Source: Fimbriimonadia bacterium
GTDB lineage: Bacteria; Armatimonadota; Fimbriimonadia; Fimbriimonadales; Fimbriimonadaceae
DNA length: 12,406 bases
Assembly (NCBI GenBank): GCA_029824475.1
Contig: JALGYA010000076.1
Location: 1-12,406, forward strand
Direction of reading: 5' to 3'
Position numbers and translations under genes: made by a program. Under the pieces are notes generated by a model. That model saw nothing but the letters and a program-made list of their open reading frames with translations. It did not search any database and had not been told where the DNA came from. Position 1 is the stretch's first letter. Every line of letters begins with the position of its first letter. Below are positions 1-12,406 of this stretch, piece by piece.

Positions 1-1875
1 ATCAAGAACCCATGGCGCCTCGTCGATCGTGATGACCTGGCGTGTCGGATATCCGGCCGCCGTTTCCGTACGGATGCGTAGGTGGAACAGGTCGGAGACG
101 AGATCGAAGGCAAGCTGATCACAGCCAATAAGGGCGTGGCCAAGTTGGGCCACGCTACATTCACCACGCCCACGGCGGGCATCGAAACTCAAGGTGTGGG
201 TCGCATACCTCAGAAGAGCTACCCGGTAGACGACCCAGTCCTCGTCCTGCTTGAGGGAGAAACATGCCTTCCGAATCCTTCGCACAGTCTCAAGCATCAT
301 CCGGAACCTAAGATCCCAACGCACGAACGACAAGGTCTCGGGAATAGCTTCGACTGCCGCTGGCACCCGCTGGTTGACCAAGTACTCCTCAAAAGCACGC
401 AGGCGTGGAAAATCCTCCAGCCCAAGCGACTTCATCATGACGAACTTCGCATCATTCTCCATCTTCGCGAAGTCGAGCTCTATTGCGGCTCGTCCACAGT
501 GAGTCCAGTCAATGAACCAAACGTTATCCCCTTCGTCGCAGATGACATTGGCGAAGTTCAGGTCACCATGCGCTAGGCATGTATCGCCCTCCAGGCCGGC
601 CTGGTTCGCAGTCACAACCCGAAAAATCCTGAGCAATTGCTTCAGGTTGACCCCAATGTCTTCCACTTCCTCTTCCTCGAGGTAGCCAAGGATGACGCCC
701 GCATTCTCCTCCAGCCAATTTGCCTGCTGTTCGACATGCAAGCCGAAATCCCGGTAGGGAACGACGTGATCACGCTCGATCGTATTCGAATACAGACGCT
801 TCACGAGAAGGTCGAGCGTCTTATCGAGCCGGAGGAGGAAATGCTGCAGGTCGCCGTCATTGTGGATGTCCTCATATGTGTCCTGCTCGGTCTGCGGCGC
901 ACCTTCCATCGCGGCGAGTTCCATCCCTACGCCGATCCATTCACCCTTTGTCACTGGATAACCCAACGCCGGAACATGCTTACCGAGAAAATCCTTCACC
1001 TGGTAATAGCCGGCCAGCTCACGGCGCATCTGATCGAATGCATCGACCTTTAACACCATCGGCTCGGTCCGCGCGTTGTCCTTCCAACCCTCCGCCAGAA
1101 ATAATAGGCTCCCGCTGAAGCCGCCCGCTAGAGGTCGCAAGTGCGTGCGCGTCCAGTGCATGCAGAGGAGTTCGACAATCCGTTTTGGGTCGCTCCCTAA
1201 CTCTTCTTCGACCTCAGCCGGCTCGATCGCGCAGGCACCGGGAACCTGGCCAGGAAAATCCAGAGGAAGGCCAGCAAACGCTGCTGTCTCATCCATATCC
1301 AACAGCACCTGGACGCCGAGACCAGGAAGCGTGTGCCGCAGCACGGCAAGGTGAGCCTCCTTGGTGACACTCCCCACGAGATGCGCCGCTACAGCGACGT
1401 CATCGCATCGGAACACTCGCCGAAGGAACACAGAAAGCGCGAGGATACGCTCTTCCGTATGACAGCCGACGACAAGGAAGCGAAGCATCCCCCGCGCATC
1501 AGGATCGAGGGGGTCTACCCCTGTCAAATCCCGGACTGCAGCCTGCAACCCCTCTGCGGGAATACGCCCCGGTGAAGTGTCCAGGATACGGGCACCCTCA
1601 AGCCGCTGGTCAAAGGGAGGGGCAAGACCCTCACCCTCCTCTTGGACTTCATTGATCACGAGCAATCCAACAGACGACGTGGAAGTGCGCGCATGGTCCA
1701 GGAACCGTGGCAAAGGACCAGCACCGAACCCACGACCGCGACCGATGAGGCGCTCAATCTCACGTTCGCCAACACTGCCACGACCTCCAAGGAATCGGGC
1801 TTCGGGGCTTACTGTAGATGAGTCCAGCCCCGCCGCAACGACTACTGTGAATGGGCGCTCGCGAGAAATGGTCAA
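1..1875 (-). CDS. Phosphotransferase-family protein (APH / choline-kinase-like fold) with an unassigned N-terminal domain of about 230 aa. 3'-truncated: the C-terminus lies beyond the window start.
   Basis: I translated the minus strand by hand; this frame is open from 1908 down to position 1 with no stop. It is absent from the ORF track, probably because it has no stop in the window. Kinase-fold motifs: Gly-rich loop 'PLAGGFSGSLLFLAEG...MVLKV' at about 1040-1130, Brenner catalytic motif 'LAHGDLNFANVICDEG' at about 560-610, and 'WFIDWTHCG' (the DxD/IDW metal-binding motif). The G-loop to HGD spacing of about 183 aa is typical of APH/ChoK enzymes. Start: TTG at 1875..1873 overlaps the kef stop TGA (1874..1872) as TTGA, and the SD-like GAGGAG (plus 1884..1889) sits 8 nt upstream. 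The N-terminal 230 aa ('PFTVVVAAGLDSSTVSPEARFLGGRGSVGEREIERLIG...') could not be assigned to a family. Confidence 0.7.
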   Translation of the reverse strand, partial: MTISRERPFTVVVAAGLDSSTVSPEARFLGGRGSVGEREIERLIGRGRGFGAGPLPRFLDHARTSTSSVGLLVINEVQEEGEGLAPPFDQRLEGARILDTSPGRIPAEGLQAAVRDLTGVDPLDPDARGMLRFLVVGCHTEERILALSVFLRRVFRCDDVAVAAHLVGSVTKEAHLAVLRHTLPGLGVQVLLDMDETAAFAGLPLDFPGQVPGACAIEPAEVEEELGSDPKRIVELLCMHWTRTHLRPLAGGFSGSLLFLAEGWKDNARTEPMVLKVDAFDQMRRELAGYYQVKDFLGKHVPALGYPVTKGEWIGVGMELAAMEGAPQTEQDTYEDIHNDGDLQHFLLRLDKTLDLLVKRLYSNTIERDHVVPYRDFGLHVEQQANWLEENAGVILGYLEEEEVEDIGVNLKQLLRIFRVVTANQAGLEGDTCLAHGDLNFANVICDEGDNVWFIDWTHCGRAAIELDFAKMENDAKFVMMKSLGLEDFPRLRAFEEYLVNQRVPAAVEAIPETLSFVRWDLRFRMMLETVRRIRKACFSLKQDEDWVVYRVALLRYATHTLSFDARRGRGECSVAQLGHALIGCDQLAFDLVSDLFHLRIRTETAAGYPTRQVITIDEAPWVLD

Positions 1876-4133
1876 GTTGCTGTCTCCTCGCGGACCAGGC
1901 CGCGGTAATTATGGCCGACCGCCCCAAACAGAGCCCGAAGTCGGTCTACGTGAGAAGTCACTGAAAGAAGCTGCCGTTTAAGGTCTGTATCCAAGCCGGT
2001 TTCCCCGAGATAGCGCTCTCGAATCCGAGCGAGCCCGCTGTTATCGGCAGAGGTCATCGCGCGCAGCAATGCGAAGTCGGTCTCGTTCGGTTCCTCCGCA
2101 AGCTCCCGAAGGCTGTGCAGGATCGCATCCAGCGCCTCCACGACGACACCAGCGAGGGTGCGGGTCCTGTCATCCTGCTCAAGCTTTTTTAGCTCAAATC
2201 CCAGCCGCTCCAACTCTGAATTCATTGCCTCAAGACGCCGTTCATTATCTTGAAGAAGCCCAATCCGTTCATATTGCTCAGGCGAGAGGGAACCAGCCGT
2301 GGTGAGACGGTCGAGTGCATCACTGATAATCATCCCCAGCGCCTGGAATGAGCTGTGCAGGGCCTTGATCGACATCACGTCGTTGCCCTCCCGGTACCGC
2401 TCAAAAAGATCGGAGTGAATCTGAAGGAGCCGACCCTGCTCCAAGCGGATGAGGTCGATACTCCTTTCCGGATCGCCCGATGCCTCGATTTCATGGAGAT
2501 AGCGAAGCGCGCTCGTCTGCTCAGCAAGTCGACGCGACTGCGAGATCTGCTCGACGAGAGACTCAGCAACCTGGCTGTTCCCATCCAAAAGCAGTTGATT
2601 GTTCGCACCATCCATATCCTTGAGCTCTTCCTCACTCGAGACGCGCGCGATCACCTTGATCTTCGGATCAATCTGCTCGAGTGCGGCCGTCGTCCGGGCA
2701 ACGGTACTGCTGTCGTCTAAAGCGAGCACAACACCCATTGCCTTGCGAACGGCGAGCCGCTCAAGAAGGATTCGGTCAGACGGATCTCCAAAGACGGCTG
2801 CTTGGGCATCCCCCCGCGCCGCGACAAAATCCGCAGTGCTGGCAGCAACTACCACATGGCGGATGCCGGCCGCTTCCAGGCGCTTCGCGACGGCGCGGCC
2901 AAAAGCACCATAGCCGCAAAGCACCACGTGGTCGCCCAATCGCTCGTCCACTTCATCCGCTTTGGAACCGACGGCACCGCGGGTCACCGCCCGGATGATC
3001 GTGTCGGATCTCTGGATTAGGAAAGGTGTCGCAATCATCGAGACGACGACCGCGGCGACCAACAACTGGGAGACTTCATCGTCGAGCATTCCGTGCCCGA
3101 TCAACAACGAAAGCACGACCAGCGAGAATTCGCCTACCTGAGCAAGACTCAGTGCAGTCTTGAGTGAAACTTCTTTGCCGACCGACCGCGTGAGCAGAAG
3201 AAAGATGCAGGCAGCCTTGAACAGCATCATGCCTGCGGCGAGCAGTAGGATCCAATGGCCGCTGTCCGCGATGAAACCGTGTTCAATCCGAAAGCCCACC
3301 GTCACGAAGAAGACACCCAGGAGAAGATCCCGGAAAGGAATCAGGTCTGCTTCTACCTGATGCCTGTGAATGCTGTCGGCAATGAGATGACCTGCGAGAA
3401 ACGCACCCAGGGAATAAGGAAAGCCGAAGGCGTGAGTCAGCCATGATGCACCGATCACGACCACAAATATGGCCCCCATGAAAATCTCCTTCGAGTTCGC
3501 GCCTGCGACAGCCTCGAAGAACAGGCGAAGCAGTCGCCGGCCGACGAGCAGCAACATAGCCAGCACAATCACAGCATTGCGCCCCGTCTCCAAAAGGAGC
3601 TCCCCCATCCCCCCTTCCTGGCTGGTGAACACAGTCACCATGAGCAGGATGGGGATCACCGCGATGTCCTGAAAGACCAGGATTCCGACTGCTGAGCGCC
3701 CGTACTCAGACTTCATCTGTCCGGCCTCGTTCAGTAGCTTAAGGACGATGGCCGTTGACGAGAGAGCGAGGCCACCACCGAGTACCGAAGCCGCACGACC
3801 GTCGATCCCGAAGACACCCCAAGCAATCAATGCCATCAGCACGCCGGTTACGACCACCTGAGCGCCACCGAAACGCAGGACCTCACGACGCATCTCCTTC
3901 AGATGGGCGACGGAAAATTCCAACCCGATGGTAAACATCAGGAAGACAACGCCGAACTCCGCAATGTGCTCCAGCTCCTCGCTGTGCAACGCCTTCTCAC
4001 CGACCACCGGCCCCAGAGCCGCGCCGGTGAGGATGTAGCCAATAACCGTTGGAATCCCAACACGCTTCAGGAGCACATTCAGGATCGTCGCAATGGCGAT
4101 CGCGAGGATCAATAGCGGAAGCAACTCGTGCAT
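1872..4133 (-). CDS. Kef-type monovalent cation:proton antiporter (CPA2 family, K+ efflux) with a cytoplasmic RCK_N/TrkA-N regulatory domain. The RCK_N domain is followed by an atypical coiled-coil-rich C-terminal extension of about 230 aa.
   Basis: 753-aa ORF with an ATG start. The N-terminal 380 aa are polytopic membrane sequence typical of Kef/NapA ('MHELLPLLILAIAIATILNVLLKRVGIPTVIGYILTGAALGP', 'GLEFS', multiple TM helices). It has a Rossmann GxGxxG motif, 'VVLCGYGAFGRAVAKRLEAAGIRHVVV', and an RCK_N ending '...KIKVIARVSSEEELKDMDGANNQLLL'. The last 230 aa are charged and helical ('LRYLHEIEASGDPERSIDLIRLEQGRLLQIHSDLFERYREG...') and do not look like RCK_C. Confidence 0.85.
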   Translation of the reverse strand: MHELLPLLILAIAIATILNVLLKRVGIPTVIGYILTGAALGPVVGEKALHSEELEHIAEFGVVFLMFTIGLEFSVAHLKEMRREVLRFGGAQVVVTGVLMALIAWGVFGIDGRAASVLGGGLALSSTAIVLKLLNEAGQMKSEYGRSAVGILVFQDIAVIPILLMVTVFTSQEGGMGELLLETGRNAVIVLAMLLLVGRRLLRLFFEAVAGANSKEIFMGAIFVVVIGASWLTHAFGFPYSLGAFLAGHLIADSIHRHQVEADLIPFRDLLLGVFFVTVGFRIEHGFIADSGHWILLLAAGMMLFKAACIFLLLTRSVGKEVSLKTALSLAQVGEFSLVVLSLLIGHGMLDDEVSQLLVAAVVVSMIATPFLIQRSDTIIRAVTRGAVGSKADEVDERLGDHVVLCGYGAFGRAVAKRLEAAGIRHVVVAASTADFVAARGDAQAAVFGDPSDRILLERLAVRKAMGVVLALDDSSTVARTTAALEQIDPKIKVIARVSSEEELKDMDGANNQLLLDGNSQVAESLVEQISQSRRLAEQTSALRYLHEIEASGDPERSIDLIRLEQGRLLQIHSDLFERYREGNDVMSIKALHSSFQALGMIISDALDRLTTAGSLSPEQYERIGLLQDNERRLEAMNSELERLGFELKKLEQDDRTRTLAGVVVEALDAILHSLRELAEEPNETDFALLRAMTSADNSGLARIRERYLGETGLDTDLKRQLLSVTSHVDRLRALFGAVGHNYRGLVREETAT

Positions 4134-4161
4134 CAGTTCAGGCGGAGGGTCGCTCGATGGA

Positions 4162-4494
4162 TCAAAAGCCCTTCATTGCTTCGTCCTCGTTGTCATAGAC
4201 ACCGAGAATCGAGCTGAATCCACTCATATCGAAGACCTCGCGCACGGTCTCGTTCAGGCTGCAGACCCGGAGCTCGCCATTGGATGCACCAAGTTGCTTG
4301 GCGGTCCACAGCAGGATACGCAGTCCGGCACTACTGATGTAGTCCAAAGCGCGAAAGTCGGCGAGCATTCGCCCAGCGCCATCGGAGATGAGCGCAGCGA
4401 TCTTCTCCTCTGCTTCTGGAGCGGTATTCGTATCGAGGTTTCCCTCGAAGCGGACCACGCAGACGTCGTCAATTCTTTCGATGGTGAGTTGCAT
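4162..4494 (-). CDS. STAS-domain anti-sigma-factor antagonist (RsbV/SpoIIAA-like anti-anti-sigma).
   Basis: 110-aa single STAS domain with an ATG start. It has a conserved phosphorylatable-serine motif, 'DFRALDYISSAGLRILL' (compare SpoIIAA/RsbV 'DLSFMDSSGLGVIL'). It lies 5 nt downstream of the HATPase_c kinase gene and 28 nt upstream of kef. Confidence 0.9.
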   Translation of the reverse strand: MQLTIERIDDVCVVRFEGNLDTNTAPEAEEKIAALISDGAGRMLADFRALDYISSAGLRILLWTAKQLGASNGELRVCSLNETVREVFDMSGFSSILGVYDNEDEAMKGF

Positions 4495-4499
4495 TGGTT

Positions 4500-6191
4500 C
4501 TATTCAGATTCGATGGGGCCTTCGCCCTGGTTCAGGAACTTCACGACCGTCACGATGTTACGGTCAATTTTTCTGGTGTAGTGGGTCTCGTCCATCATTG
4601 ATTCGACGAGGTGGATGCCGAGGCCACCAATCTTTCGCTCGGCGATCGGCAGTGATGTATCCGGCGAGACGTGTGCGAACGGGTTGAAAGGAACTCCTTC
4701 GTCCTCAACCGTGAGGACCAGACGGGTTGGGGTTAGGTCAAAACGAACCCCAATGGAATGCTCTGCGTCGTCGGGACCATCGACGAATGCGTACGAAATC
4801 ACATTGTTCAGCAACTCGTCAAACGCCATCGCGGTCGTCCTCCGGACCTTATCCTCGACACCGTTATCCGCTGCGAACTCCTGGAACCGCTCCAGGACCA
4901 CTGCGATCTCCTCGAGCCGGCTTGCAATCCGAAACTCAAGCACTCCCATGGTTGCAGGGTCCGATGCGCCCGCGAATGAGAGCGCCATCACAGTGATGTC
5001 ATCCGCCTGCTCAGCCTTGCCCTGGAACTCCCAGACGCGCGACACGACATCATCGACCATCCCCTTGACCGCGGCCGGCCCGCCCTTCAGGCAATCCACC
5101 AGCGGTTCCTCCCCATACAGATGACCCTTCTCATTCATCGCTTCGGTGATGCCGTCGGTGTAGACCAACAGCCGGTCACCTCGAGTCATCTCCTGCTCGC
5201 TCTCACCATAGGTCATGCCGGGCACCGCAGCAACGATCGGTCCATGAAGCTCAGCGAGCCGGCGTGGGGGATCCTCTTCGTGGAGCAGGAATGGCGGGTT
5301 GTGGCCTGCATTGGTGAACCGCAACTTTCCAGTGTTCAAGTCAAGGATCCCCAGCCATACAGTCACGAACATGCACGAATCATTGCTGTGCCCGAGTTCA
5401 TCGTTGACATGAGTCAGGATGCTCGCCGGAGACACATCATTCGTCGCCCGCGACTTAATCAGGGTCTTGGTCATCGCCATGAACAGGGCGGCTGGAACAC
5501 CCTTGCCCGAGACGTCACCCACGCAGATGCAAAGACGCTCTTCCCCAATCAGGAAGAAGTCGTAGAAGTCGCCTCCGACCTCGCGTGCTGGATGCAGTGC
5601 TGCGTGGATGAGGAACTCAGTTCGATGGGAGTAGGCATCAAAGTCCTCCGGCAGCATGCTCATCTGGATATCGCGGCCGATGGTGAGCTCGCCCTCCATG
5701 CGCTCCTTTGCCGTCGTCGTCCGCTGGAGGTCCTCAATCGACTTTCGAAGCTCAGCGTTACTAGCCGTCAGGTCTGACATGAGCTCATCCCGGGACCTCT
5801 GCAGCAGCACGGCTCGCACCTCTGCAACGGTCCGCTCATCCGATGCACAGGCACCGTGAATCCCAAAATATGCAGTTGCGATCGCCTCGCCCGGCGCATG
5901 GGAGCCTTGAAACTCAATGAACTCGGCGAGCGCCTCAGGCACCGATTCCAACTTGAACGCTGGGAACGTGAGAACGATCACCCACTTGGCTCCGCGGTTT
6001 TCCAGTGCCAACTCAATTTGGCCGCTGTCGCATGACGAACGAAGACCTCGAGCGAGTACTGAAACAGCCGTACCGAATCGCGCTGCTGCAACTCGGTCGC
6101 CGCAAATGAGTTCACAGGCCATTCGAGCCTTGCTTCGTGAAGCGACAACGGAGTCAATCCCGAGGAAGGACAATGCGCCGAGAGGAATCAT
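4500..6191 (-). CDS. Fusion protein: N-terminal domain of unknown type (about 140 aa), coiled-coil, PP2C/SpoIIE-type serine phosphatase (RsbU/RsbP-like), then a C-terminal RsbW/SpoIIAB-like HATPase_c anti-sigma-type serine kinase.
   Basis: The ORF track gives 4500..6200, which starts at a GTG. The preferred start is the ATG at 6191..6189: it forms an ATGA overlap with the upstream gene's TGA stop, and the SD-like GAGGTG sits 6 nt upstream. PP2C motifs match B. subtilis RsbU: 'GELTIGRDIQMSMLP', 'REVGGDFYDFF', 'ICVGDVSGKGVPAALFMAMTKTLI', 'LLVYTDGITEA', 'ADDITVMAL'. The C-terminal HATPase_c resembles RsbW: 'AFDELLNNVISYAF', 'LVLTVEDEGVPFNP', 'GGLGIHLVESMMDE'. Confidence 0.88.
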   Translation of the reverse strand: MIPLGALSFLGIDSVVASRSKARMACELICGDRVAAARFGTAVSVLARGLRSSCDSGQIELALENRGAKWVIVLTFPAFKLESVPEALAEFIEFQGSHAPGEAIATAYFGIHGACASDERTVAEVRAVLLQRSRDELMSDLTASNAELRKSIEDLQRTTTAKERMEGELTIGRDIQMSMLPEDFDAYSHRTEFLIHAALHPAREVGGDFYDFFLIGEERLCICVGDVSGKGVPAALFMAMTKTLIKSRATNDVSPASILTHVNDELGHSNDSCMFVTVWLGILDLNTGKLRFTNAGHNPPFLLHEEDPPRRLAELHGPIVAAVPGMTYGESEQEMTRGDRLLVYTDGITEAMNEKGHLYGEEPLVDCLKGGPAAVKGMVDDVVSRVWEFQGKAEQADDITVMALSFAGASDPATMGVLEFRIASRLEEIAVVLERFQEFAADNGVEDKVRRTTAMAFDELLNNVISYAFVDGPDDAEHSIGVRFDLTPTRLVLTVEDEGVPFNPFAHVSPDTSLPIAERKIGGLGIHLVESMMDETHYTRKIDRNIVTVVKFLNQGEGPIESE

Positions 6192-7264
6192 CGCACGCAC
6201 CTCAACACGATGCAGCTGGCGTCATCATGAGACTTGCCATACTTCTCCACAATCGCCCGCGCGAAGTCCTGGGGCTTCTGGAACCGAGTATCAGAAGCGG
6301 GAATTCTGGCGAGCCGGTCGCTTACCCCATCAGAATGCATCACGACAAGGTCCGTCGGCCCCATGACCATTGACTGGATGGTCGGCGTGCGCATGCGCCC
6401 GCCAAGAACCCCCTCGGCATAGTGAAACGAAATGGCTCGCCCGCCAAGGTGCCGAAGCGACACATTGCCGACCCCTGCGAACTCCAGCGTGCGCTCCTCC
6501 GCGCGAAAATACACCACCGCAGCGGCAGCCCCCAGACTCCCTTTAAGGCCGTGACCAAGCCGTTCAACTGCTCGCACAGGATCGACATCAAATTCCTCTG
6601 CCAGCAAACGACGAGCTCGCATGGCAACTTCGTACGCACCCATTCCATGCCCGAGCCCATCGATCAAGGCAGCTCGCTGAACTTGCTCGGAATGATCGAA
6701 GAAGACCTGATCTCCACTGAATCTTTCACCTAGGCTGGGGCGAATGAAAAACCCGCATTGAATTCCGAACTGATCTTCCGCTCCTCGCGCAACTCCTCCA
6801 AAGCCTCTGCCATCGACGGCCCCCAAGGACTTACCACCCTCCAGTGAGATGGAGCCTGAATCGCGCGTGATGCCCCTGCGACAGTGAATAGCAATCCGTA
6901 CCAGTGTTCCAGTTCCTACCTCGGATTCCAGCTCAAACTCATCCACCATCCGCTTTATCCCTGGAAGGCCAAGCCCAAGTGTTCCACTGGAACTGAAATG
7001 ATCCTCGAGCGCCTTCTCGATATCAGGTATCCCAGGACCCTGATCCCGCGCGATTGCCTGACAACCTGGGGCATTCGTATTCAGAACTTGGAATTCGATC
7101 TCCCCAGACTCCGCGTACTTCAAGATATTACGGCCAAGTTCCGAGACCGAAGTCGCGAACTTGTTGACTTCCGGCAATGCAAGTCCCGCCCTCTTCGCGA
7201 TCTGGGTCGCCATAAGCACGGCTCGCGTGAGTGAGCCTTCGGAGTCGACACGCGCCTTATCCAT
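6188..7264 (-). CDS. rsbT: Fusion protein: RsbT-like HATPase_c serine kinase (stressosome kinase) at the N-terminus and an RsbX-like PP2C feedback phosphatase at the C-terminus.
   Basis: The ORF track gives 6188..7279, which starts at a GTG. The ATG at 7264..7262 is better supported: the SD GGAGG sits 3 nt upstream, and it overlaps the rsbS stop by 8 nt. The N-terminal half closely matches B. subtilis RsbT: '[19 protein letters not shown]' versus 'ISELARNIFLYAGKGQIGI', and '[55 protein letters not shown]' versus '[56 protein letters not shown]'. The C-terminal half has RsbX-like PP2C motifs: 'SGDQVFFD', '[14 protein letters not shown]', 'FAGVGNVSL', 'LVVMHSDGV', '[10 protein letters not shown]'. 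Confidence 0.88.
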   Translation of the reverse strand: [358 protein letters not shown]

Positions 7265-7727
7265 CTTCCTCCAAGCCACCCTCTCCGCCTTCCTCTGGAC
7301 CCAGCTCGTCGAGCTCGGCCTCAGTCAGATCAGCGGTGCTATCGCCCCGATTGCCATCCTTGTGCGCCTGCATGGCTCGAAAAGCGTCATCCAGGTCGAG
7401 CACCGCATCGATCGATCGCACGTCTGCTGCCAAGTCAATCAATGAGGAAACGACTCCGGGACGCAGACCTGCTACCAGACATCGAGCACCAAGGAGCTTG
7501 GCCATGTCGAGCGTCTTCCGTAATGCATCGAAGTCCGTCAAGTCCAGGATTTCGACACCTGCCACGTCAAGGATCACTCCACGGGCACCTGTCCGGTGAA
7601 GTAGCGCGAGCAGGTCCTCTCGAAGGTCAGCAACGCGTTTTTCATCCAGGTCTCCCTGGATTGAGGCCACGATGCAACCTTGGGTGAGCTGCAGCGGTAC
7701 GGCTCCGGCTCTCGATTCCAAGCTCAA
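7257..7727 (-). CDS. rsbS: RsbS-like single-STAS-domain stressosome scaffold protein.
   Basis: 156 aa. 'VPLQLTQGCIVASIQGDLDEKRVADLREDLLALLHRTGARGVILDVAGVEILD...' is collinear with B. subtilis RsbS '[53 protein letters not shown]...'. The start is TTG at 7727..7725, which forms a TTGA overlap with the rsbR stop. The C-terminal tail is acidic, 'ELDELGPEEGGEGGLEEDG'. Confidence 0.85.
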   Translation of the reverse strand: MSLESRAGAVPLQLTQGCIVASIQGDLDEKRVADLREDLLALLHRTGARGVILDVAGVEILDLTDFDALRKTLDMAKLLGARCLVAGLRPGVVSSLIDLAADVRSIDAVLDLDDAFRAMQAHKDGNRGDSTADLTEAELDELGPEEGGEGGLEEDG

Positions 7728-8629
7728 CGCTTCACGCGCTTCGTGCTGATTTCCATTCCCGAGCGTTGGAAAGCGTCAGAGAGTGCATCCTTCATCGTGG
7801 CCGTCGTCTTGATGCTGCCGACGTCAATGCCCAGGTCGACGATGGTCTGCGCGATCGCAGGCGAAAGGCCCGAGATGGTGCACTCACAACCCATCAGCCG
7901 GGTTGCACTGGTGATTTTAATGAGGTTGTTTGCGACTGCAGTATCCACTACACCGACACCACTGATGTCGAGGATGAAGATCTGCGCCTGCGTCTCGGCG
8001 ATCTTGGCGAGAGTCGCATTCATGATGTCTCCCGCACGGTGCGAGTCGATGATGCCGACAATGGGAAGCAGCAGGATCCCTTCCCAAATCTGCGTCACGG
8101 GCGTCGACATCTCCATCAGCGCCTTCGACTGGGAAGTGAGCATGTCCTCAACAACCGCGTTGTACGAGTCAACAATGATCGCGGCATCCAGGTGCGCTAC
8201 TTTCGTAATCGCGCCCTGAACCGCGACGACCTCCTCTTGAGGCAACTCCTGAGTAAGAAGCTGACAGATAATCTCCAGGAAGGTGTTCACGCCGGACCAG
8301 TACGAACTGAGCTGCAGGCCGATCCGCGCGTGAGTCTGCCCGACGCGAAACCTAGTCGCGACATAGGCCTCGTCAATCTCGGCCGTGAAGAGTTGACGCC
8401 AGAACTCTACCTGTCGCGCCTGGGCACTCTCCAGAAGATCTGCGTCAGAGAAGAATTGAGTGAACTCGGGCCGGGTCTCCATCCAATCGTAGAAACGAGT
8501 GAGGAGCTCCGGGAGGCGCGCCTCCAACTTGGGAGCAGCACTGCGGACCAGATCAAGATCTGAGTCAGACACCAGGAACTGGGTCTTCAATTCCTCGGGG
8601 TTATTCGAACTGTGGTTGTACTGGGTCAT
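7724..8629 (-). CDS. rsbR: RsbR-like stressosome sensor: N-terminal globin-coupled-sensor-type (non-haem or haem globin) domain plus a C-terminal STAS domain.
   Basis: 301 aa with an ATG start. The C-terminus closely matches the B. subtilis RsbR STAS domain, including both phospho-threonines: 'FILDISGVGVVDTAVANNLIKITSATRLMGCECTISGLSPAIAQTIVDLGIDVGSIKTTATMKDAL' versus 'ILDITGVPVVDTMVAHHIIQASEAVRLVGCQAMLVGIRPEIAQTIVNLGIELDQIITTNTMKKGM'. The N-terminal 170 aa have sensor-globin features: 'FYDWMETRPEFTQFF...VEFWRQLFTAEIDEAYVATRFRVGQTHARIGL'. Confidence 0.88.
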   Translation of the reverse strand: MTQYNHSSNNPEELKTQFLVSDSDLDLVRSAAPKLEARLPELLTRFYDWMETRPEFTQFFSDADLLESAQARQVEFWRQLFTAEIDEAYVATRFRVGQTHARIGLQLSSYWSGVNTFLEIICQLLTQELPQEEVVAVQGAITKVAHLDAAIIVDSYNAVVEDMLTSQSKALMEMSTPVTQIWEGILLLPIVGIIDSHRAGDIMNATLAKIAETQAQIFILDISGVGVVDTAVANNLIKITSATRLMGCECTISGLSPAIAQTIVDLGIDVGSIKTTATMKDALSDAFQRSGMEISTKRVKR

Positions 8630-8637
8630 GACTAGCC

Positions 8638-10458
8638 CTATTTGCTCAGTTGAAGGACGACCTCAATGCCGTCCTGAAGTGTACGCTCCGTGCGGATACC
8701 CTCGAGTGCTAGATCGAGGTCCACAATCGTGCGCGCGGCGTCCGCTTGAACGCCGGTAATGACGACCTCCGCACCGAGGAGCCGCGCGGACCTCGCGGCG
8801 CGCGCCAACCCGGTCGCGACAGTTTCATCGAGGCGGGGCAATCCGGTGAGGTCAAGAATCGCCGCGCGCGCGCCACGCTTATGGAGACCCTCCACAAGCA
8901 TTTCACGGACATGCTCGATTCGCCGTTCGTCCATCTCACCCACAAGCGGCATGACGACGACGTCTTCTTGCAGGGAGATCAAAGGTGTTGAAAGCGCATC
9001 GATCGCCTCATTCTGCTTGGCAACCATCTGTTCAAGTGAGGCACGCATCGTCTCCAAACTCGCTCCCAATGCACCGAGTTCATCCCTGCGCGTGACCTCG
9101 ACTGGTTTATCCAGGTCGCCCTTAGCAAGTGAGGCAGCTACACCTGAAAGCCGCTCAATGGGACGTGTCAGGGAGCGAGCGAAGAACACTGCTCCGGCCA
9201 CAATCAGCGCCATGATTCCAATTTGCTCCAGGATGATCTGATTCCGCAACTCCTTCGCTGGTCCGAGTGCTTCAGCCTCATCGATCTCAGCCAACAGCGC
9301 CCAATCAATGCCAGGCAGGTCGAGTGGTCGATAACTCGAGAGCACTGGAACACCTCGGTAGTCCTCGAAGACTCCACGACCCGTATCTCCAGCCTGTACA
9401 GCCCTGACACCGGCAGTATCGACCACCTGCAGGCCGATCGCGCTCCCTTGAGCCTCAATTGAAGCAATCACTGAGGAGTCCTGACCGTGGCGCCGCAGGG
9501 TGCTGAGGTAGGACTCGCCATCCTCGACAAGGAACCTCGACTCGTTCCGCAGTGTACGGTCGGCGCCCACGATGTAGCACTCACCTGAGGCGCCAAGCCC
9601 GACATCCTCCCAACGGCCGCCGGTCGTCATGATGTCATCAATCCGATCGATCGGCACTTGAAAGGCAAGTACGCCTACCTGCTCGTCCCCATCGAAGATT
9701 GGCGACGCAATGAACGAGGCGCTCGCACCGTACGAAGGGAGATACGGCGAATAGTCCACCAGCTCCACACTCCCGGAAGTCGTTGCTGATGCCACCGCCT
9801 CGAAGCATGTCGCGAGGTTGGACTCACGATGGGGTCCTGATTTCAGCGACGTGCCAAAGTCCATCTCCTTAGAGGCACTGTAGACGACATTACCCGTCCT
9901 GGAATCGATCAGGAATACGTCGTAGTAACCGAACCGCTCAAGGAAGGAGCGAAACAATGGATGGTAGCGCGCATGAGCATCCGCATAACTGCTGCCATCT
10001 CCAGGATCGTCGAGCAGTGCGCGGGAACCCAATGAAAACGGACTCCGCGCGAGGAAAAGGCGCTGGAGTTCCTGTCCCATTCGATTCTGCGGAATGAGGT
10101 CTGCAAGCGGGGGAGTGCCAGGCAAGGCCTCAAGCCGCGGCAGCACCTCCGACTCATAATGCAGGCGCAATTCAAGATCGTCGTCTCCAGATGGCTCGAC
10201 CCTGGCGAATGCCTCGGAGAATTCGCGCATCGCGCCGATCACCATCAGACTTTCCGAGAGAGTCAGGACTTGCCCCTCGACTGCCTGAAAGTAGGTGTGA
10301 ATTTGCTCCGCCTTTGTTTCCCTGACAACCGTCAACTTCTGAAACGCACCATCCAGCAAGGACTTTCTCGCCTGCCTATACGCCGTGTGCGCAGTCAGTC
10401 CCGACGCCGCGACCCCCACGAGCACGAGCAAAATCAGGGTTCGGATGCGGATGGACAT
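8638..10458 (-). CDS. Membrane-anchored STAS-domain sensor: signal-anchor/TM1, periplasmic double-Cache (dCache_1-like) domain, TM2, HAMP domain, cytoplasmic STAS domain. RsbR-paralogue-like stressosome input protein.
   Basis: 606 aa with an ATG start. TM1 is 'IRTLILLVLVGVAASGL'. The 330-aa extracytoplasmic region has dCache hallmarks: 'YYDVFLIDSRTGNVVYSASKE', 'VGVLAFQVPIDRIDDIM', 'GASGECYIVGADRTLRNESRF'. TM2 is 'IGIMALIVAGAVFFA'. The HAMP-like segment is 'RSLTRPIERLSGVAASLAKGDLDKPVEVTRRDELGALGASLETMRASLEQM'. The C-terminal STAS is 'VVMPLVGEMDERRIEHVREMLVEGLHKRGARAAILDLTGLPRLDETVATGLARAARSARLLGAEVVITGVQADAARTIVDL'. Confidence 0.85.
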   Translation of the reverse strand: MSIRIRTLILLVLVGVAASGLTAHTAYRQARKSLLDGAFQKLTVVRETKAEQIHTYFQAVEGQVLTLSESLMVIGAMREFSEAFARVEPSGDDDLELRLHYESEVLPRLEALPGTPPLADLIPQNRMGQELQRLFLARSPFSLGSRALLDDPGDGSSYADAHARYHPLFRSFLERFGYYDVFLIDSRTGNVVYSASKEMDFGTSLKSGPHRESNLATCFEAVASATTSGSVELVDYSPYLPSYGASASFIASPIFDGDEQVGVLAFQVPIDRIDDIMTTGGRWEDVGLGASGECYIVGADRTLRNESRFLVEDGESYLSTLRRHGQDSSVIASIEAQGSAIGLQVVDTAGVRAVQAGDTGRGVFEDYRGVPVLSSYRPLDLPGIDWALLAEIDEAEALGPAKELRNQIILEQIGIMALIVAGAVFFARSLTRPIERLSGVAASLAKGDLDKPVEVTRRDELGALGASLETMRASLEQMVAKQNEAIDALSTPLISLQEDVVVMPLVGEMDERRIEHVREMLVEGLHKRGARAAILDLTGLPRLDETVATGLARAARSARLLGAEVVITGVQADAARTIVDLDLALEGIRTERTLQDGIEVVLQLSK

Positions 10459-10548
10459 GAGATTAGAGTCAGGAAGTCGCCGACAAAGCGATTGTGCCCG
10501 ATAATACTCGGTCAGCCCTTGAATCGCGACCCGGGAGATCCCTTGAGT
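10459..10548 (-). promoter_or_regulatory. Intergenic region between flotillin and the sensor gene. Candidate promoter for the partner-switching operon: a -10-like TATTAT lies at 10506..10501 on the minus strand.
   Basis: This is the only intergenic gap of 30 nt or more upstream of the eight-gene array. The minus strand reads '...tcgcgattcaagggctgaccgagTATTATcgggcacaatcg...ATG'. The -10-like hexamer sits 42 nt upstream of the ATG, but I found no convincing -35. Confidence 0.25.
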
Positions 10549-11754
10549 TCATTTCAGCTCCGGCGGGAGCGAGGAATCTCCTTGCTGAACCTTGTTGGCA
10601 AGTTTAGCGATGTCGATGCCTGTCGCGTTTTTCAACTGCTCCAGCATGGCCACTGCTGATCCAGCTACGTTCCGCACATGCCCTGGCAAGGCTCCCCCTT
10701 CTCCCCCATCGACAATCGTCAGCTTATCAATCCTGAGGTTATCAGCAACCGTGCGAGTGACTTGCTCCATCAAGGTGGGTAGGAGCTGGATTAGGAATAG
10801 ATCCTTTGCGTCCTCACCTACCCATTGACCGCGAAGCAGCTCAAGCGCCTCGGCAGTGGCACGCCCTTCTTCGCGGATACGCGCCGAGCTACCCTCGGCG
10901 CTTAGCAATCCGGCATCACGAGCAGCTTCGGCTGGAACAACGACGTCTGCCTGAGTCCGTTTGCGAGCAAGCTCAATCCGGCGCTCCTCAAGCGCGACTT
11001 CCTCTTCTGCACGAGCGATCGCACCAGCGACTGATGCACGCTCTTCCGCCCGGCTCTCCTCACCGGCAAGTTCAGCACGACGGACCTTGAGAGCGTTCTC
11101 TTCTCCGATCACGGACTGCTCAGATGAGATCTCCGCAATCCGAGCAAATTTGTCCTGCTCTGCAGCGACGCTCCGCGCTTCGGCGTCAGCAGTAGCCTCT
11201 GCTACTCGCGCATCTCGCTGCACAGCGGAATTACGCTGGCGGCCGATTGCCGTGAGATAACCAGCCTCGTCCGAGATATCTTGCACCTGAAAATAATCAA
11301 GCACGATGCCAAGGTCTCGCAAAAGCGCCCGCGAACGTTCGGTGACCTGTTGAGCCAGGTCGAGTCGCTCAGAGTTGGCATTCTCAGGTGACATCGTCGC
11401 CAACACGCCACGCAGGACGCCGCTGACCGCCTGCTTGGCTGCCTTGATCACCGCATCTTCCCCCTTGCCAAGAAAACGCTCAATGGCTGCATCCAATCCG
11501 TCCTCCTCGCGGCCAGCGAGCTTAACGCTGGCACGCGCATCGACATTGACCGGGATCATCCCCGCGCACATGGCCTTTCCCACCTGCAGATCGAGCCCTA
11601 TTGAGGTCAACGGAAGTCGCGCCACAGACTCAACGAGTGGCATTTTGAAGCCACGCCCACCTCGGATCACACGATAGCCTCTTGTATCGCCACCCCCCGT
11701 TTGCTTCCGGCGCGCCAAGTAGACGTTTGAGAATAGCCGCGTAGGAATACCCAA
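10549..11754 (-). CDS. Flotillin / SPFH (band-7) family protein, FloT/YqiK-like: the SPFH-domain body plus an EA-rich coiled coil. Its N-terminal membrane segment lies in a different frame (see 11630..12058).
   Basis: 'GYRVIRGGRGFKMPLVESV' matches FloT 'RIKIVRGGGTFVLPVFQ'. The coiled coil is long and Glu/Ala-rich ('AEATADAEARSVAAEQDKFARIAE...EERRIELARKR'), and the C-terminus has the flotillin motif 'LFLIQLLPTLMEQVTRTVADNLRIDKLTIVDGG'. The nominal start at 11754 is a TTG picked by the ORF tool; the true N-terminus is upstream in another frame. Confidence 0.85.
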   Translation of the reverse strand: MGIPTRLFSNVYLARRKQTGGGDTRGYRVIRGGRGFKMPLVESVARLPLTSIGLDLQVGKAMCAGMIPVNVDARASVKLAGREEDGLDAAIERFLGKGEDAVIKAAKQAVSGVLRGVLATMSPENANSERLDLAQQVTERSRALLRDLGIVLDYFQVQDISDEAGYLTAIGRQRNSAVQRDARVAEATADAEARSVAAEQDKFARIAEISSEQSVIGEENALKVRRAELAGEESRAEERASVAGAIARAEEEVALEERRIELARKRTQADVVVPAEAARDAGLLSAEGSSARIREEGRATAEALELLRGQWVGEDAKDLFLIQLLPTLMEQVTRTVADNLRIDKLTIVDGGEGGALPGHVRNVAGSAVAMLEQLKNATGIDIAKLANKVQQGDSSLPPELK

Positions 11755-12058
11755 AATAGCTGCCCATTGCTATCAGGACGTAGGGCCAGAAACGAATCGC
11801 AAGGACAATGATGCCTCCTCGCCCCCCACGCCTCCCGGAAGCCTTCCCGAGTTCGGCTGAATCAACAGCAGCAAACGGATCTTCCCAGCCCGATAGCAGG
11901 AAGATGCCAGCAGCCAAACAGTAAAGTGATGCGACTAGGCCGCCAACGGCAGCTGCCTTTGCTGCAGCATCCCAGCCGCGCTTGTCCACAGCTACAAGGG
12001 CATGAATGGTCACGAATGAGCCGACGAAGGCGATGAAAATGAAAGAGGCCTGGAACAT
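11630..12058 (-). CDS. N-terminal membrane portion of the same flotillin gene, in the -1 frame relative to the body, with 2-3 hydrophobic helices. The frameshift is probably at the C6 tract at 11693..11698, so this is either a pseudogene or a homopolymer sequencing error.
   Basis: ATG at 12058..12056. It has hydrophobic segments 'ASFIFIAFVGSFVTIHALVAV', 'AAAVGGLVASLYCLAAGIFLL' and 'GGIIVLAIRFWPYVLIAMGSYFGYSYAAIL'. The end of this frame, '...AAILKRLLGAPEANGG', joins collinearly to the body frame, 'GDTRGYRVIRGG...', if one G is removed from the G6 run on the coding strand. Compare FloT 'KYRTAGPDEALIVTGSYLGN...RIKIVRGGG'. Confidence 0.6.
   Translation of the reverse strand: MFQASFIFIAFVGSFVTIHALVAVDKRGWDAAAKAAAVGGLVASLYCLAAGIFLLSGWEDPFAAVDSAELGKASGRRGGRGGIIVLAIRFWPYVLIAMGSYFGYSYAAILKRLLGAPEANGGWRYKRLSCDPRWAWLQNATR
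11693..11698. repeat. C6/G6 homopolymer inside the flotillin gene, at the point where the reading frame changes.
   Basis: Plus strand 11691..11700 is 'caccccccgt'. Frame A (the N-terminal membrane part) and frame B (the SPFH body) both read through this run. Confidence 0.6.
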
Positions 12059-12219
12059 GAATTAGCTTTTCATGGTGCTTAACGGGATTGCCGTTCAGCT
12101 GACGCCGGGTCGCGAAGCGGTCCGGTGGTCGGCTGCAACGGCTGGTTAGAAAGCCTACAGAAATGTTTTGGTCCTTATTCAAAAACAACCGCGCATCAGG
12201 ATCCTTCATAACGCTCAAC

Positions 12220-12406
12220 TCATAGAAATAGCGCCAAGAGATATATCCAGAAGGAGCCTATCAAAAGAGTCAGAGCACCAAGGATGAGGGTTTCCAACTT
12301 TGCCTTCTTCCGACGTTTGGCGTGGAAAAAAAGACCAAAGCTGGCCGCAAAACCAAGCCCAATCCCTGCAATAAACACGCAGAACAGCCAAGCACTATCC
12401 ACTCCA
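12220..12406 (-). CDS. Hypothetical small 2-TM membrane protein. It may continue past the window end, and it may be spurious.
   Basis: The ORF 12220..12402 begins with GTG, and the frame stays open to the window edge. It has two hydrophobic helices flanking 'HAKRRKKAKLE'. It lies in the AT-richer, roughly 50% GC segment, and its codon usage differs from the neighbouring genes. Confidence 0.3.
   Translation of the reverse strand, partial: GVDSAWLFCVFIAGIGLGFAASFGLFFHAKRRKKAKLETLILGALTLLIGSFWIYLLALFL

Follow-up and report, generated by a model that had tools for sequence, protein, structure and literature searches.

The window analyzed here is a 12,406-nucleotide (nt) stretch of contig JALGYA010000076.1 (assembly GCA_029824475.1) from a Fimbriimonadia bacterium. 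Its list of open reading frames (ORFs) and their Pfam matches describe one long gene cluster on the minus strand. The subject of this study is the gene at 8638..10458 (-), hereafter the receptor gene, whose product combines a double-Cache (dCache) sensor, a HAMP domain, and an RsbR-type STAS domain and is encoded beside the genes of a stressosome, a normally cytoplasmic stress-signaling complex. The receptor ORF is the longest one at this position, starts with ATG, and encodes 606 amino acids. Pfam, homologs, an AlphaFold2 (AF2) model, and a 100% identical protein (P0001) recorded in a Planctomycetota metagenome-assembled genome (MAG) and in a 56-kb JGI contig (locus L001) support this assignment. 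Neighboring genes between 10458 and 4162 overlap or are separated by no more than 13–23 nt. The first-pass annotation had placed the gene directly upstream of rsbR-rsbS-rsbT, and this was borne out by an 8-nt, operon-like gap to rsbR in the window and by the same gene order in all 11 loci compared below. We consider it probable that the receptor is an accessory RsbR paralog of the YtvA class, through which a ligand signal from the periplasm reaches a globin-type stressosome and by which the complex is anchored to the membrane.

The Kyte–Doolittle profile of the receptor contains exactly two strong transmembrane (TM) peaks. The first (TM1 or signal anchor, residues 5–25, IRTLILLVLVGVAASGLTAHT; 10384..10446 (-); peak 2.03) is helical in the AF2 model, and the second (TM2, residues 408–427; 9178..9237 (-); peak 2.29) is part of a helix covering residues 399–445. 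HAMP (PF00672) was found at residues 425–477 (9028..9186 (-)) as a full-length profile match of 64.4 bits (cut-off 25), together with matches to HAMP chains in PDB such as Af1503. The STAS domain, at residues 497–596 (8671..8970 (-)), scored 48.3 bits (cut-off 22.6) and was assigned to the RsbR/YtvA type from Pfam, PDB, Foldseek, and NCBIfam. Between HAMP and STAS lies a linker helix (residues 478–496; 8971..9027 (-)) with the motif 'AIDALSTPLISL', which is continuous with HAMP AS2 according to alignments and the AF2 model. HAMP, which follows TM2 immediately, puts the C-terminus in the cytoplasm, and the positions of the two TM segments give an extracytoplasmic part of ca. 380 amino acids (residues 27–407; 9238..10380 (-)). 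In this part, Pfam dCache_1 (PF02743) aligned with residues 177–389 at 36.8 bits, under its cut-off of 45; therefore, the Cache assignment needs structural evidence, which came from AF2 and Foldseek.

The AF2 model was built on 118 homologs and has a mean predicted local distance difference test (pLDDT) score of 88. It shows a long N-terminal helix, four extra helices (residues 71–176), alpha/beta modules at residues 180–267 and 293–393, and a STAS fold; the helices at 399–445 (TM2 and HAMP AS1) and 460–490 (AS2 and linker) are unbroken. In Foldseek searches against PDB, the model matched full-length dCache chemoreceptor models and also stressosome STAS domains, including Bacillus subtilis RsbS (6jhk; TM-score 0.92, root-mean-square deviation 1.2 Å) and Listeria RsbR. 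The sensor fold matched the solved dCache ligand-binding domains of PctA, CtaA, McpH, DctB, and Mlp24 (E ~1e-7, probability 1.0). Hydropathy, AF2, and Foldseek together thus place a double PAS-like (Cache) fold, carried on a long N-terminal helix, between the two TM segments.

These results confirmed the architecture, topology, and fold that had first been described. The order of signal anchor, dCache, TM2, HAMP, and STAS agreed with Pfam, hydropathy, AF2, and Foldseek, and the two TM segments and HAMP place the sensor outside and the C-terminus in the cytoplasm. Two details were only partly upheld: in the Pfam profile check of the domain order, HAMP and STAS passed their cut-offs and dCache_1 did not, and the dCache-like fold was found in an extracytoplasmic domain of ca. 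380 amino acids and not of about 330 as proposed.

RsbR-type STAS domain and its phosphosite columns

Residues 474–604 were searched against all PDB sequences using phmmer. RsbR of Listeria and Bacillus matched at E values of 3e-20 to 2e-19, ahead of Vibrio vulnificus RsbR (1e-17), RsbS (1e-12), YtvA (3e-11), and SpoIIAA (1e-4), and the RsbR match extended over the linker helix. Among the proteins of the window, the STAS fragment of the receptor aligned with RsbR without gaps over 131 amino acids (E 1.5e-21) and more weakly with RsbS (7e-15); it gave no match with the RsbV-like protein. The best NCBIfam match was YtvA_fam at 82 bits, which covers the STAS part only and is far under the 250-bit equivalog cut-off. 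The (L/M)STP linker motif is also shared, as 'AIDALSTPLISL' of the receptor aligns with 'ALQELSAPLLPI' of Listeria RsbR and 'ALMEMSTPVTQI' of the window RsbR. From TM2 to the end of STAS, no insertion or deletion was found in 118 of 118 family sequences, so that the length of HAMP and the linker is invariant. By sequence ranking, the receptor STAS domain is of the RsbR type, closer to RsbR than to RsbS or RsbV/SpoIIAA; the PDB ranking and the gap-free alignment with the window RsbR agree with the RsbR-type assignment made at first pass.

A different role for this domain would be that of a membrane-bound anti-anti-sigma factor like RsbV or SpoIIAA, which partners an RsbW-like domain or another anti-sigma factor independently of RsbR, RsbS, and RsbT. 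The common STAS fold, a low-scoring hit to the anti-sigma factor antagonist superfamily model of NCBIfam (26 bits; cut-off 53), and the JGI source annotation 'anti-anti-sigma regulatory factor' are in line with such a role. However, RsbR (3e-20) is far closer than SpoIIAA (1e-4), similarity to the RsbV-like protein of the same operon is undetectable, the kinase-target position holds Glu and not a phosphorylatable Ser, and a dedicated RsbV-like protein is already encoded beside the PP2C-kinase. From the PDB ranking and the comparison with the window proteins, we rejected this role as extremely improbable.

The phosphosite columns were set by the chain numbering of Listeria RsbR in the PDB alignment and by the V. 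vulnificus paper. E511 (8926..8928 (-)) lies in the column of B. subtilis RsbRA T171 and Listeria RsbR T175, and E545 (8824..8826 (-)) in that of B. subtilis T205 and Listeria T209; the receptor therefore has no phosphorylatable Thr or Ser at the RsbRA T171 and T205 positions. Exactly the same columns are occupied by E168 and E202 of YtvA. Among 118 family members, column 511 contains E (42), P (28), D (16), A (9), Q (9), S (4), and T (3), and column 545 contains E (57), P (11), S (10), D (10), A (9), and Q (7); Ser or Thr at either column occurs in only 16 of the 118. We considered describing E511 and E545 as phosphomimetic, which was judged too strong because Pro is frequent at both columns; 'non-phosphorylatable' is a safe description. 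The 'AQT' column of STAS is not a known phosphosite.

All features of the RsbR family that we checked were found in the receptor, except for the phospho-threonines. Since YtvA, an accepted member of the RsbR family, also has Glu at both positions, the phospho-threonines mark the co-antagonist subgroup (RsbRA–RD) and not the whole family. The receptor shares with YtvA the acidic residues at both columns and a canonical RsbR alongside. Its N-terminal part, which consists of TM1, dCache, TM2, and HAMP, gave no PAS or LOV match; therefore, the receptor is not a YtvA ortholog and belongs only to the same functional class.

Conserved globin-type stressosome module

A word-indexed search (90%-identity clusters) yielded 1,220 receptor homologs at E ≤ 1e-5. 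The best 120 homologs are 46–81% identical to the receptor and 566–660 amino acids long, and in precomputed domain assignments nearly all have the set dCache_1, HAMP, and STAS (two have no Cache match and one has no STAS match). The family is annotated just as 'HAMP domain-containing protein,' 'anti-anti-sigma regulatory factor,' or 'methyl-accepting chemotaxis protein' (MCP). The last identity, given in some JGI annotations, was ruled out for the receptor, which has no match to MCPsignal (PF00015).

We compared the gene order at 11 loci, namely L001 (Planctomycetota), L002 (a complete Chloroflexota genome), L003 (Gemmatimonadota, Longimicrobiales), L004 (Acidobacteriota), L005 (Ignavibacteria), and L083–L088 (metagenome contigs). 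At all 11, which represent at least five phyla, the receptor gene is followed by genes for Protoglobin-STAS, STAS, and HATPase_c_2 proteins, the last with or without SpoIIE. A SpoIIE plus HATPase_c_2 gene comes next in 10 loci and an RsbV-like STAS gene in 9; L002 lacks both the PP2C-kinase and the RsbV-like genes, and the contig of L004 ends inside the PP2C-kinase gene.

In the window, the gene next to the receptor gene encodes RsbR (7724..8629 (-); 301 amino acids; Protoglobin and STAS in Pfam); its entire length is covered by a match to V. vulnificus RsbR (7o0i_B; E 1.9e-87). This protein is a heme-type globin in which the proximal-His motif is kept, and its two phosphosites are occupied by Ser ('GIIDSHRA') and Thr ('VVDT'). 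In nine of nine aligned loci, the receptor gene is adjoined by a canonical globin RsbR in which Ser and Thr are retained. The following RsbS (7257..7727 (-)), a single STAS domain with an acidic C-terminal tail, was assigned from its matches to solved RsbS (E 2e-18 to 4e-17) and an alignment of nine orthologs. It has Leu where the phospho-serine of B. subtilis (S59) and Listeria (S56) sits; the same column in the orthologs of L001–L005 and L083–L086 reads L, L, A, G, A, A, T, A, and L, and V. vulnificus has G. The RsbS orthologs of this clade have acidic C-terminal tails of 30–45 amino acids. RsbT-dependent phosphorylation of RsbS, which is central in the Bacillus model, may thus not operate in these globin-type modules.

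An RsbT-like kinase (residues 16–130; HATPase_c_2) and an RsbX-like PP2C (residues ~173–360; SpoIIE) form one protein in the window (6188..7279 (-)), and the PP2C half matches Moorella MtX (3zt9; 2e-11) and B. subtilis RsbX (3w40; 1.5e-7). RsbT and RsbX are fused (358–363 amino acids) in the window, L003, L004, L083, and L085–L088 and are encoded by separate genes in L002, L005, and L084. It is unusual for a switch kinase to be covalently joined to its own feedback phosphatase.

The next product, the PP2C-kinase (4500..6200 (-)), consists of an N-terminal domain of ca. 150 amino acids, a PP2C domain (Pfam SpoIIE, 165 bits), and an RsbW-like kinase domain (HATPase_c_2, 77 bits), and its PDB matches are RssB, Rv1364c, and RsbW. 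The N-terminal domain has no Pfam or family match. It is kept only in stressosome-wired loci (L003, L005, and weakly L004), and in L007–L009 a sensor-HAMP(-PAS) module takes its place. From this distribution, it is a candidate for the domain on which RsbT docks, in analogy to RsbU_N, and it presumably receives RsbT. The RsbV-like protein (4162..4494 (-)), a single STAS domain (73.7 bits; also an NCBIfam anti-sigma factor antagonist), is the presumed substrate and partner of the PP2C-kinase, with which it may form a partner switch like those of RssB/HsbR- and Rv1364c-type proteins. In the Ignavibacteria locus, an additional RsbR-like STAS protein (L005:10283-11143) is encoded downstream of the PP2C-kinase, so that some modules have three RsbR-type inputs.

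The remainder of the window contains a Kef/NhaP-type cation/proton antiporter with Na+/H+-exchanger and TrkA_N domains (1872..4133 (-)), the first 555 codons of an APH/TCAD9 protein that continues past the window end (1..1665 (-)), and a flotillin (Band_7; 10549..11754 (-)) identified from its ORF and Pfam match. The antiporter has a C-terminal extension of ca. 240 amino acids without a family match. A 47%-identical ortholog, extension included, lies beside a sensor-PP2C-kinase fusion in a Myxococcales MAG (L007:28-2043), and a Na_H_Exchanger gene is also found near the stressosome module in L085. The antiporter may be a target of the partner switch. A sigma-70 promoter scan gave no match and terminator-like sites occurred at chance level, a scan that is uninformative for this organism.

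The window at 1..11717 is identical to the 56-kb contig of L001 except for 4 single-nucleotide differences (3362, 6887, 8438, and 8461) and an extra G at 11714. Beyond 11717, its sequence (11718..12406) is unrelated to L001; as a result, the window flotillin gene is missing 38 codons at its start, those of the N-terminal membrane hairpin among them ('METAELIGIIIGVAALAVLLLIVF...' in L001), and directly adjoins a 142-amino-acid ORF (11630..12058) without a family match. A rearrangement in this strain, a pseudogene, or a chimeric assembly could account for the divergence. In the flanks of L001, L083, L085, L087, and L088, a wider conserved neighborhood was observed, with an ammonium transporter, P-II, and glutamine synthetase (amt-glnK-glnA) and flotillin upstream, and an APH/TCAD9/NUDT9_N(/NUDIX) protein of ca. 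780–870 amino acids and inositol monophosphatase downstream, sometimes with a cNMP-gated ion channel or OpuAC. These flanking genes hint at nitrogen, ion, or osmotic physiology; many of the loci are related.

Periplasmic sensor and its other outputs

The sensor is composed of a long helix, a helical insert of ca. 100 amino acids (residues 69–176; 9931..10257 (-)), a membrane-distal Cache module (residues ~177–290), and a proximal one (residues ~291–398). Because of the insert, it is ca. 100 amino acids larger than solved dCache domains. Among 118 family sequences, conservation is highest in the membrane-distal module. Family-invariant residues of the sensor include Y101, Q132, H162, H166, K197, E198, D200, T203, D235, Y239, S242, Q267, R304, R308, and D366-Y367-R368; those of the insert are Y101, P123, Q132, H162, and H166, with the two His residues forming an H-x3-H motif. 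No amino-acid motif of the R-x-W type was seen in the distal module ('VYSVFKEVDFGTSL..GPY') when it was judged by eye without a structure-based alignment. Some homologous sensors pass the dCache_1 threshold (47–51 bits in L025, L045, and L076).

We scanned species-representative genomes with motifs of the periplasmic domain and obtained at least 595 loci. Among the 80 best, 77 have the sensor-TM2-HAMP part (37–48% identity over ~480 amino acids) joined to an output other than STAS: a hybrid histidine kinase (L006 and L064), an adenylate/guanylate cyclase (cyanobacteria; L025 and L045), an MCP signaling domain (L034 and L076, from the cultured Agaribacter flavus and Photobacterium sp. Ph5), PP2C (L010), or PP2C-HATPase_c_2 with or without PAS (L007–L009). 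The sensor alone retrieved 3,137 cluster representatives at E ≤ 1e-30 among 1.84 billion proteins, and since most of these are far longer than 620 amino acids, the STAS output is a minority. In the fusions of L007–L009 (L007:2127-6002, L008:84-2954, and L009:6986-10870), the PP2C-kinase part is 47–52% identical to the window PP2C-kinase, and the RsbV-like protein encoded after them is 40–52% identical to that of the window. The L007 fusion is preceded by a Kef antiporter with 47% identity to the window antiporter. The fusion of this sensor with a window-type PP2C-kinase indicates that sensor and output belong to one pathway, wired either directly or through the stressosome proteins RsbR, RsbS, and RsbT. 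By these comparisons, the sensor is a genuine, widespread, and promiscuous input module.

The other outputs also bear on whether the receptor is a tether or scaffold only, which would anchor the stressosome as Prli42 does in Listeria and relay no ligand signal from its periplasmic domain. Prli42 anchors Listeria RsbR at the membrane and has no clear stress-sensing role (PMC9840623), and flotillin is encoded upstream of the receptor gene in 5 of the 11 loci, immediately so in 4 and with one small ORF between in the other, both of which would suit a tether. Nevertheless, conservation of the protein peaks in the distal Cache module, which has many invariant polar and aromatic residues, the length of HAMP and the linker is invariant, and in other proteins this sensor is coupled to chemoreceptor, kinase, and cyclase outputs. 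A simple anchor would need none of these, and we regard this explanation as very unlikely.

Proposed signaling and comparison with known systems

In the reading that we favor, that of an accessory RsbR paralog with a periplasmic input, the cytoplasmic sensor domain usual in RsbR would be replaced by a complete transmembrane receptor front end. The receptor would reside in the inner membrane as a homodimer, and a small ligand would be bound by the highly conserved membrane-distal module of its double-Cache domain. The signal could then pass through TM2, the HAMP four-helix bundle, and a rigid helix, which is invariant in length and runs on into the RsbR linker helix, and would alter the pose of the C-terminal STAS dimer. 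This dimer is proposed to fill RsbR positions in a core made mainly of globin RsbR and RsbS, by which the complex would be docked at the membrane and an extracellular cue added to the cytoplasmic O2/heme cue. Released RsbT(-X) would activate the downstream PP2C-kinase, and the latter would set the phosphorylation state of the RsbV-like STAS protein in a partner switch of the HsbR/HsbA or Rv1364c type. Dimerization, ligand binding, co-assembly, membrane tethering, the direction of regulation, and the final output in this scheme are all inferred. Because both phosphosites of the receptor are Glu, it would stand outside the RsbT/RsbX phosphorylation feedback and signal by conformation only; phosphorylation-independent signaling inside stressosomes has precedent (PMC3944199). 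YtvA needs other RsbR proteins, and the receptor gene always occurs with a canonical globin RsbR, which is consistent with the YtvA analogy. More tentatively, and with somewhat less confidence than doubt, we suggest a hybrid membrane-docked stressosome, in which a few Cache receptor dimers and heme-globin RsbR dimers share one STAS core without receptor phosphorylation and flotillin may have an organizing role.

Several observations weigh against this reading. The receptor STAS domain is only 31% identical to its partner RsbR, Pro is also common at the phosphosite columns (28 and 11 of 118), and the sensor had no sequence similarity to any solved structure in a PDB sequence search. RsbS does not have the canonical phospho-serine, and therefore the Bacillus release mechanism may not carry over directly. 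No gene for a sigma factor or other final target is present within the window, and several of the 11 loci are from related metagenomes (JGI 33000410xx) and are not fully independent. Furthermore, a membrane-embedded dimer would have to enter a closed STAS cage, whose geometry would allow only a few membrane-facing turrets.

The last difficulty does not arise if the receptor is a stand-alone membrane unit, in which the STAS dimer binds RsbS and/or RsbT-X outside the RsbR/RsbS cage and would act as a parallel RsbT sequestration site or a competitor of the cytoplasmic stressosome. This possibility draws on the same RsbR-type STAS and synteny evidence without forcing a membrane protein into a closed cage. 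Moreover, a recent B. subtilis study reports RsbT-dependent, stressosome-independent stress sensing (PMC11821858), and Listeria RsbR1 was found in membrane-bound, protomer, and clustered states (PMC9840623). On the other hand, YtvA, the closest analog in phosphosites and NCBIfam match, is reported to be a permanent part of the stressosome and to form no complex with RsbS alone (PMC3944199), and co-assembly accounts better for the canonical RsbR that strictly accompanies the receptor in all 11 loci. We consider the stand-alone unit rather unlikely and retain co-assembly of the receptor with globin RsbR and RsbS as the preferred reading.

What stressosomes sense is a long-standing question, and the only defined inputs are light (YtvA) and O2 (Vibrio globin RsbR); a recent study calls into question that Bacillus RsbR proteins sense stress at all (PMC11821858). 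An RsbR paralog with a periplasmic double-Cache input would offer a tractable route to a stressosome signal, because thermal-shift ligand screens are a routine means of de-orphaning Cache domains and because the same sensor occurs on chemoreceptors, where the ligand would be readable as chemotaxis. If co-assembly is true, the hybrid complex would combine a chemical signal from outside the cell with the O2/redox signal of the cytoplasm, and for the first time a stressosome would have an input beyond the membrane with an identifiable ligand; it also raises the structural puzzle of how membrane-embedded subunits fit into a closed STAS cage. Our full-text literature searches found no description of a Cache-, HAMP-, or transmembrane-type RsbR, although their coverage of subscription journals was thin, so that a prior mention is possible.

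In fold and in the topology TM1, double-Cache, TM2, and HAMP, the receptor is the same as dCache-HAMP receptors such as PctA, CtaA, McpH, Mlp24, and the DctB kinase. Its output is an RsbR-type STAS domain, and therefore the signal goes to a multi-subunit STAS scaffold, unlike the enzymatic and chemotaxis outputs of those receptors. Chlamydia RsbU, a periplasmic sensor-PP2C protein, is another receptor of this kind. At the output end, Mycobacterium tuberculosis Rv1364c (3ke6) combines PP2C and an RsbW-like kinase in one protein, as does the PP2C-kinase of the window's output pair, and Pseudomonas aeruginosa HsbR/HsbA and Vibrio fischeri SypE/SypA are likewise partner switches of a PP2C-kinase and a STAS protein.

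The cytoplasmic module itself is closest to the globin RSTX modules of V. vulnificus and Vibrio brasiliensis (7o0i; PMC9237108, PMC4976288), whose rsbR, rsbS, rsbT, and rsbX are orthologous to those of the window. V. vulnificus RsbS matches the window RsbS at 4e-17, and both lack Ser at the S59 column. In contrast, V. vulnificus has no RsbR paralog (PMC9237108) and no membrane component, its output is a two-component/cyclic di-GMP module and not a PP2C-kinase plus RsbV-like pair, and its RsbT and RsbX are not fused. The published survey of globin RSTX modules covered only the downstream genes (PMC9237108).

Prli42 of Listeria (PMC9840623), like the proposed receptor, puts RsbR or stressosome components at the cytoplasmic membrane. 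It is a separate miniprotein without a sensor that binds RsbR1 non-covalently, whereas the receptor has anchor, sensor, and STAS in one polypeptide and would be a built-in counterpart of this tether. YtvA is incorporated in the stressosome, forms none with RsbS alone, acts as a positive regulator, and, like the receptor, is an accessory sensor beside canonical RsbR proteins (PMC3944199). Both proteins have an RsbR-type STAS domain after a helical linker with an 'LSTP' motif (B. subtilis LOV-STAS protein, 2mwg) and Glu at both RsbRA phospho-Thr positions (E168/E202 in YtvA and E511/E545 in the receptor). They differ in that YtvA is a soluble blue-light sensor with a LOV domain and the receptor is embedded in the membrane, with a double-Cache sensor in the periplasm and a HAMP domain. 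In addition, ytvA is not known to be linked to the rsb operon in B. subtilis, in contrast to the receptor gene, which is the first gene of its stressosome module.

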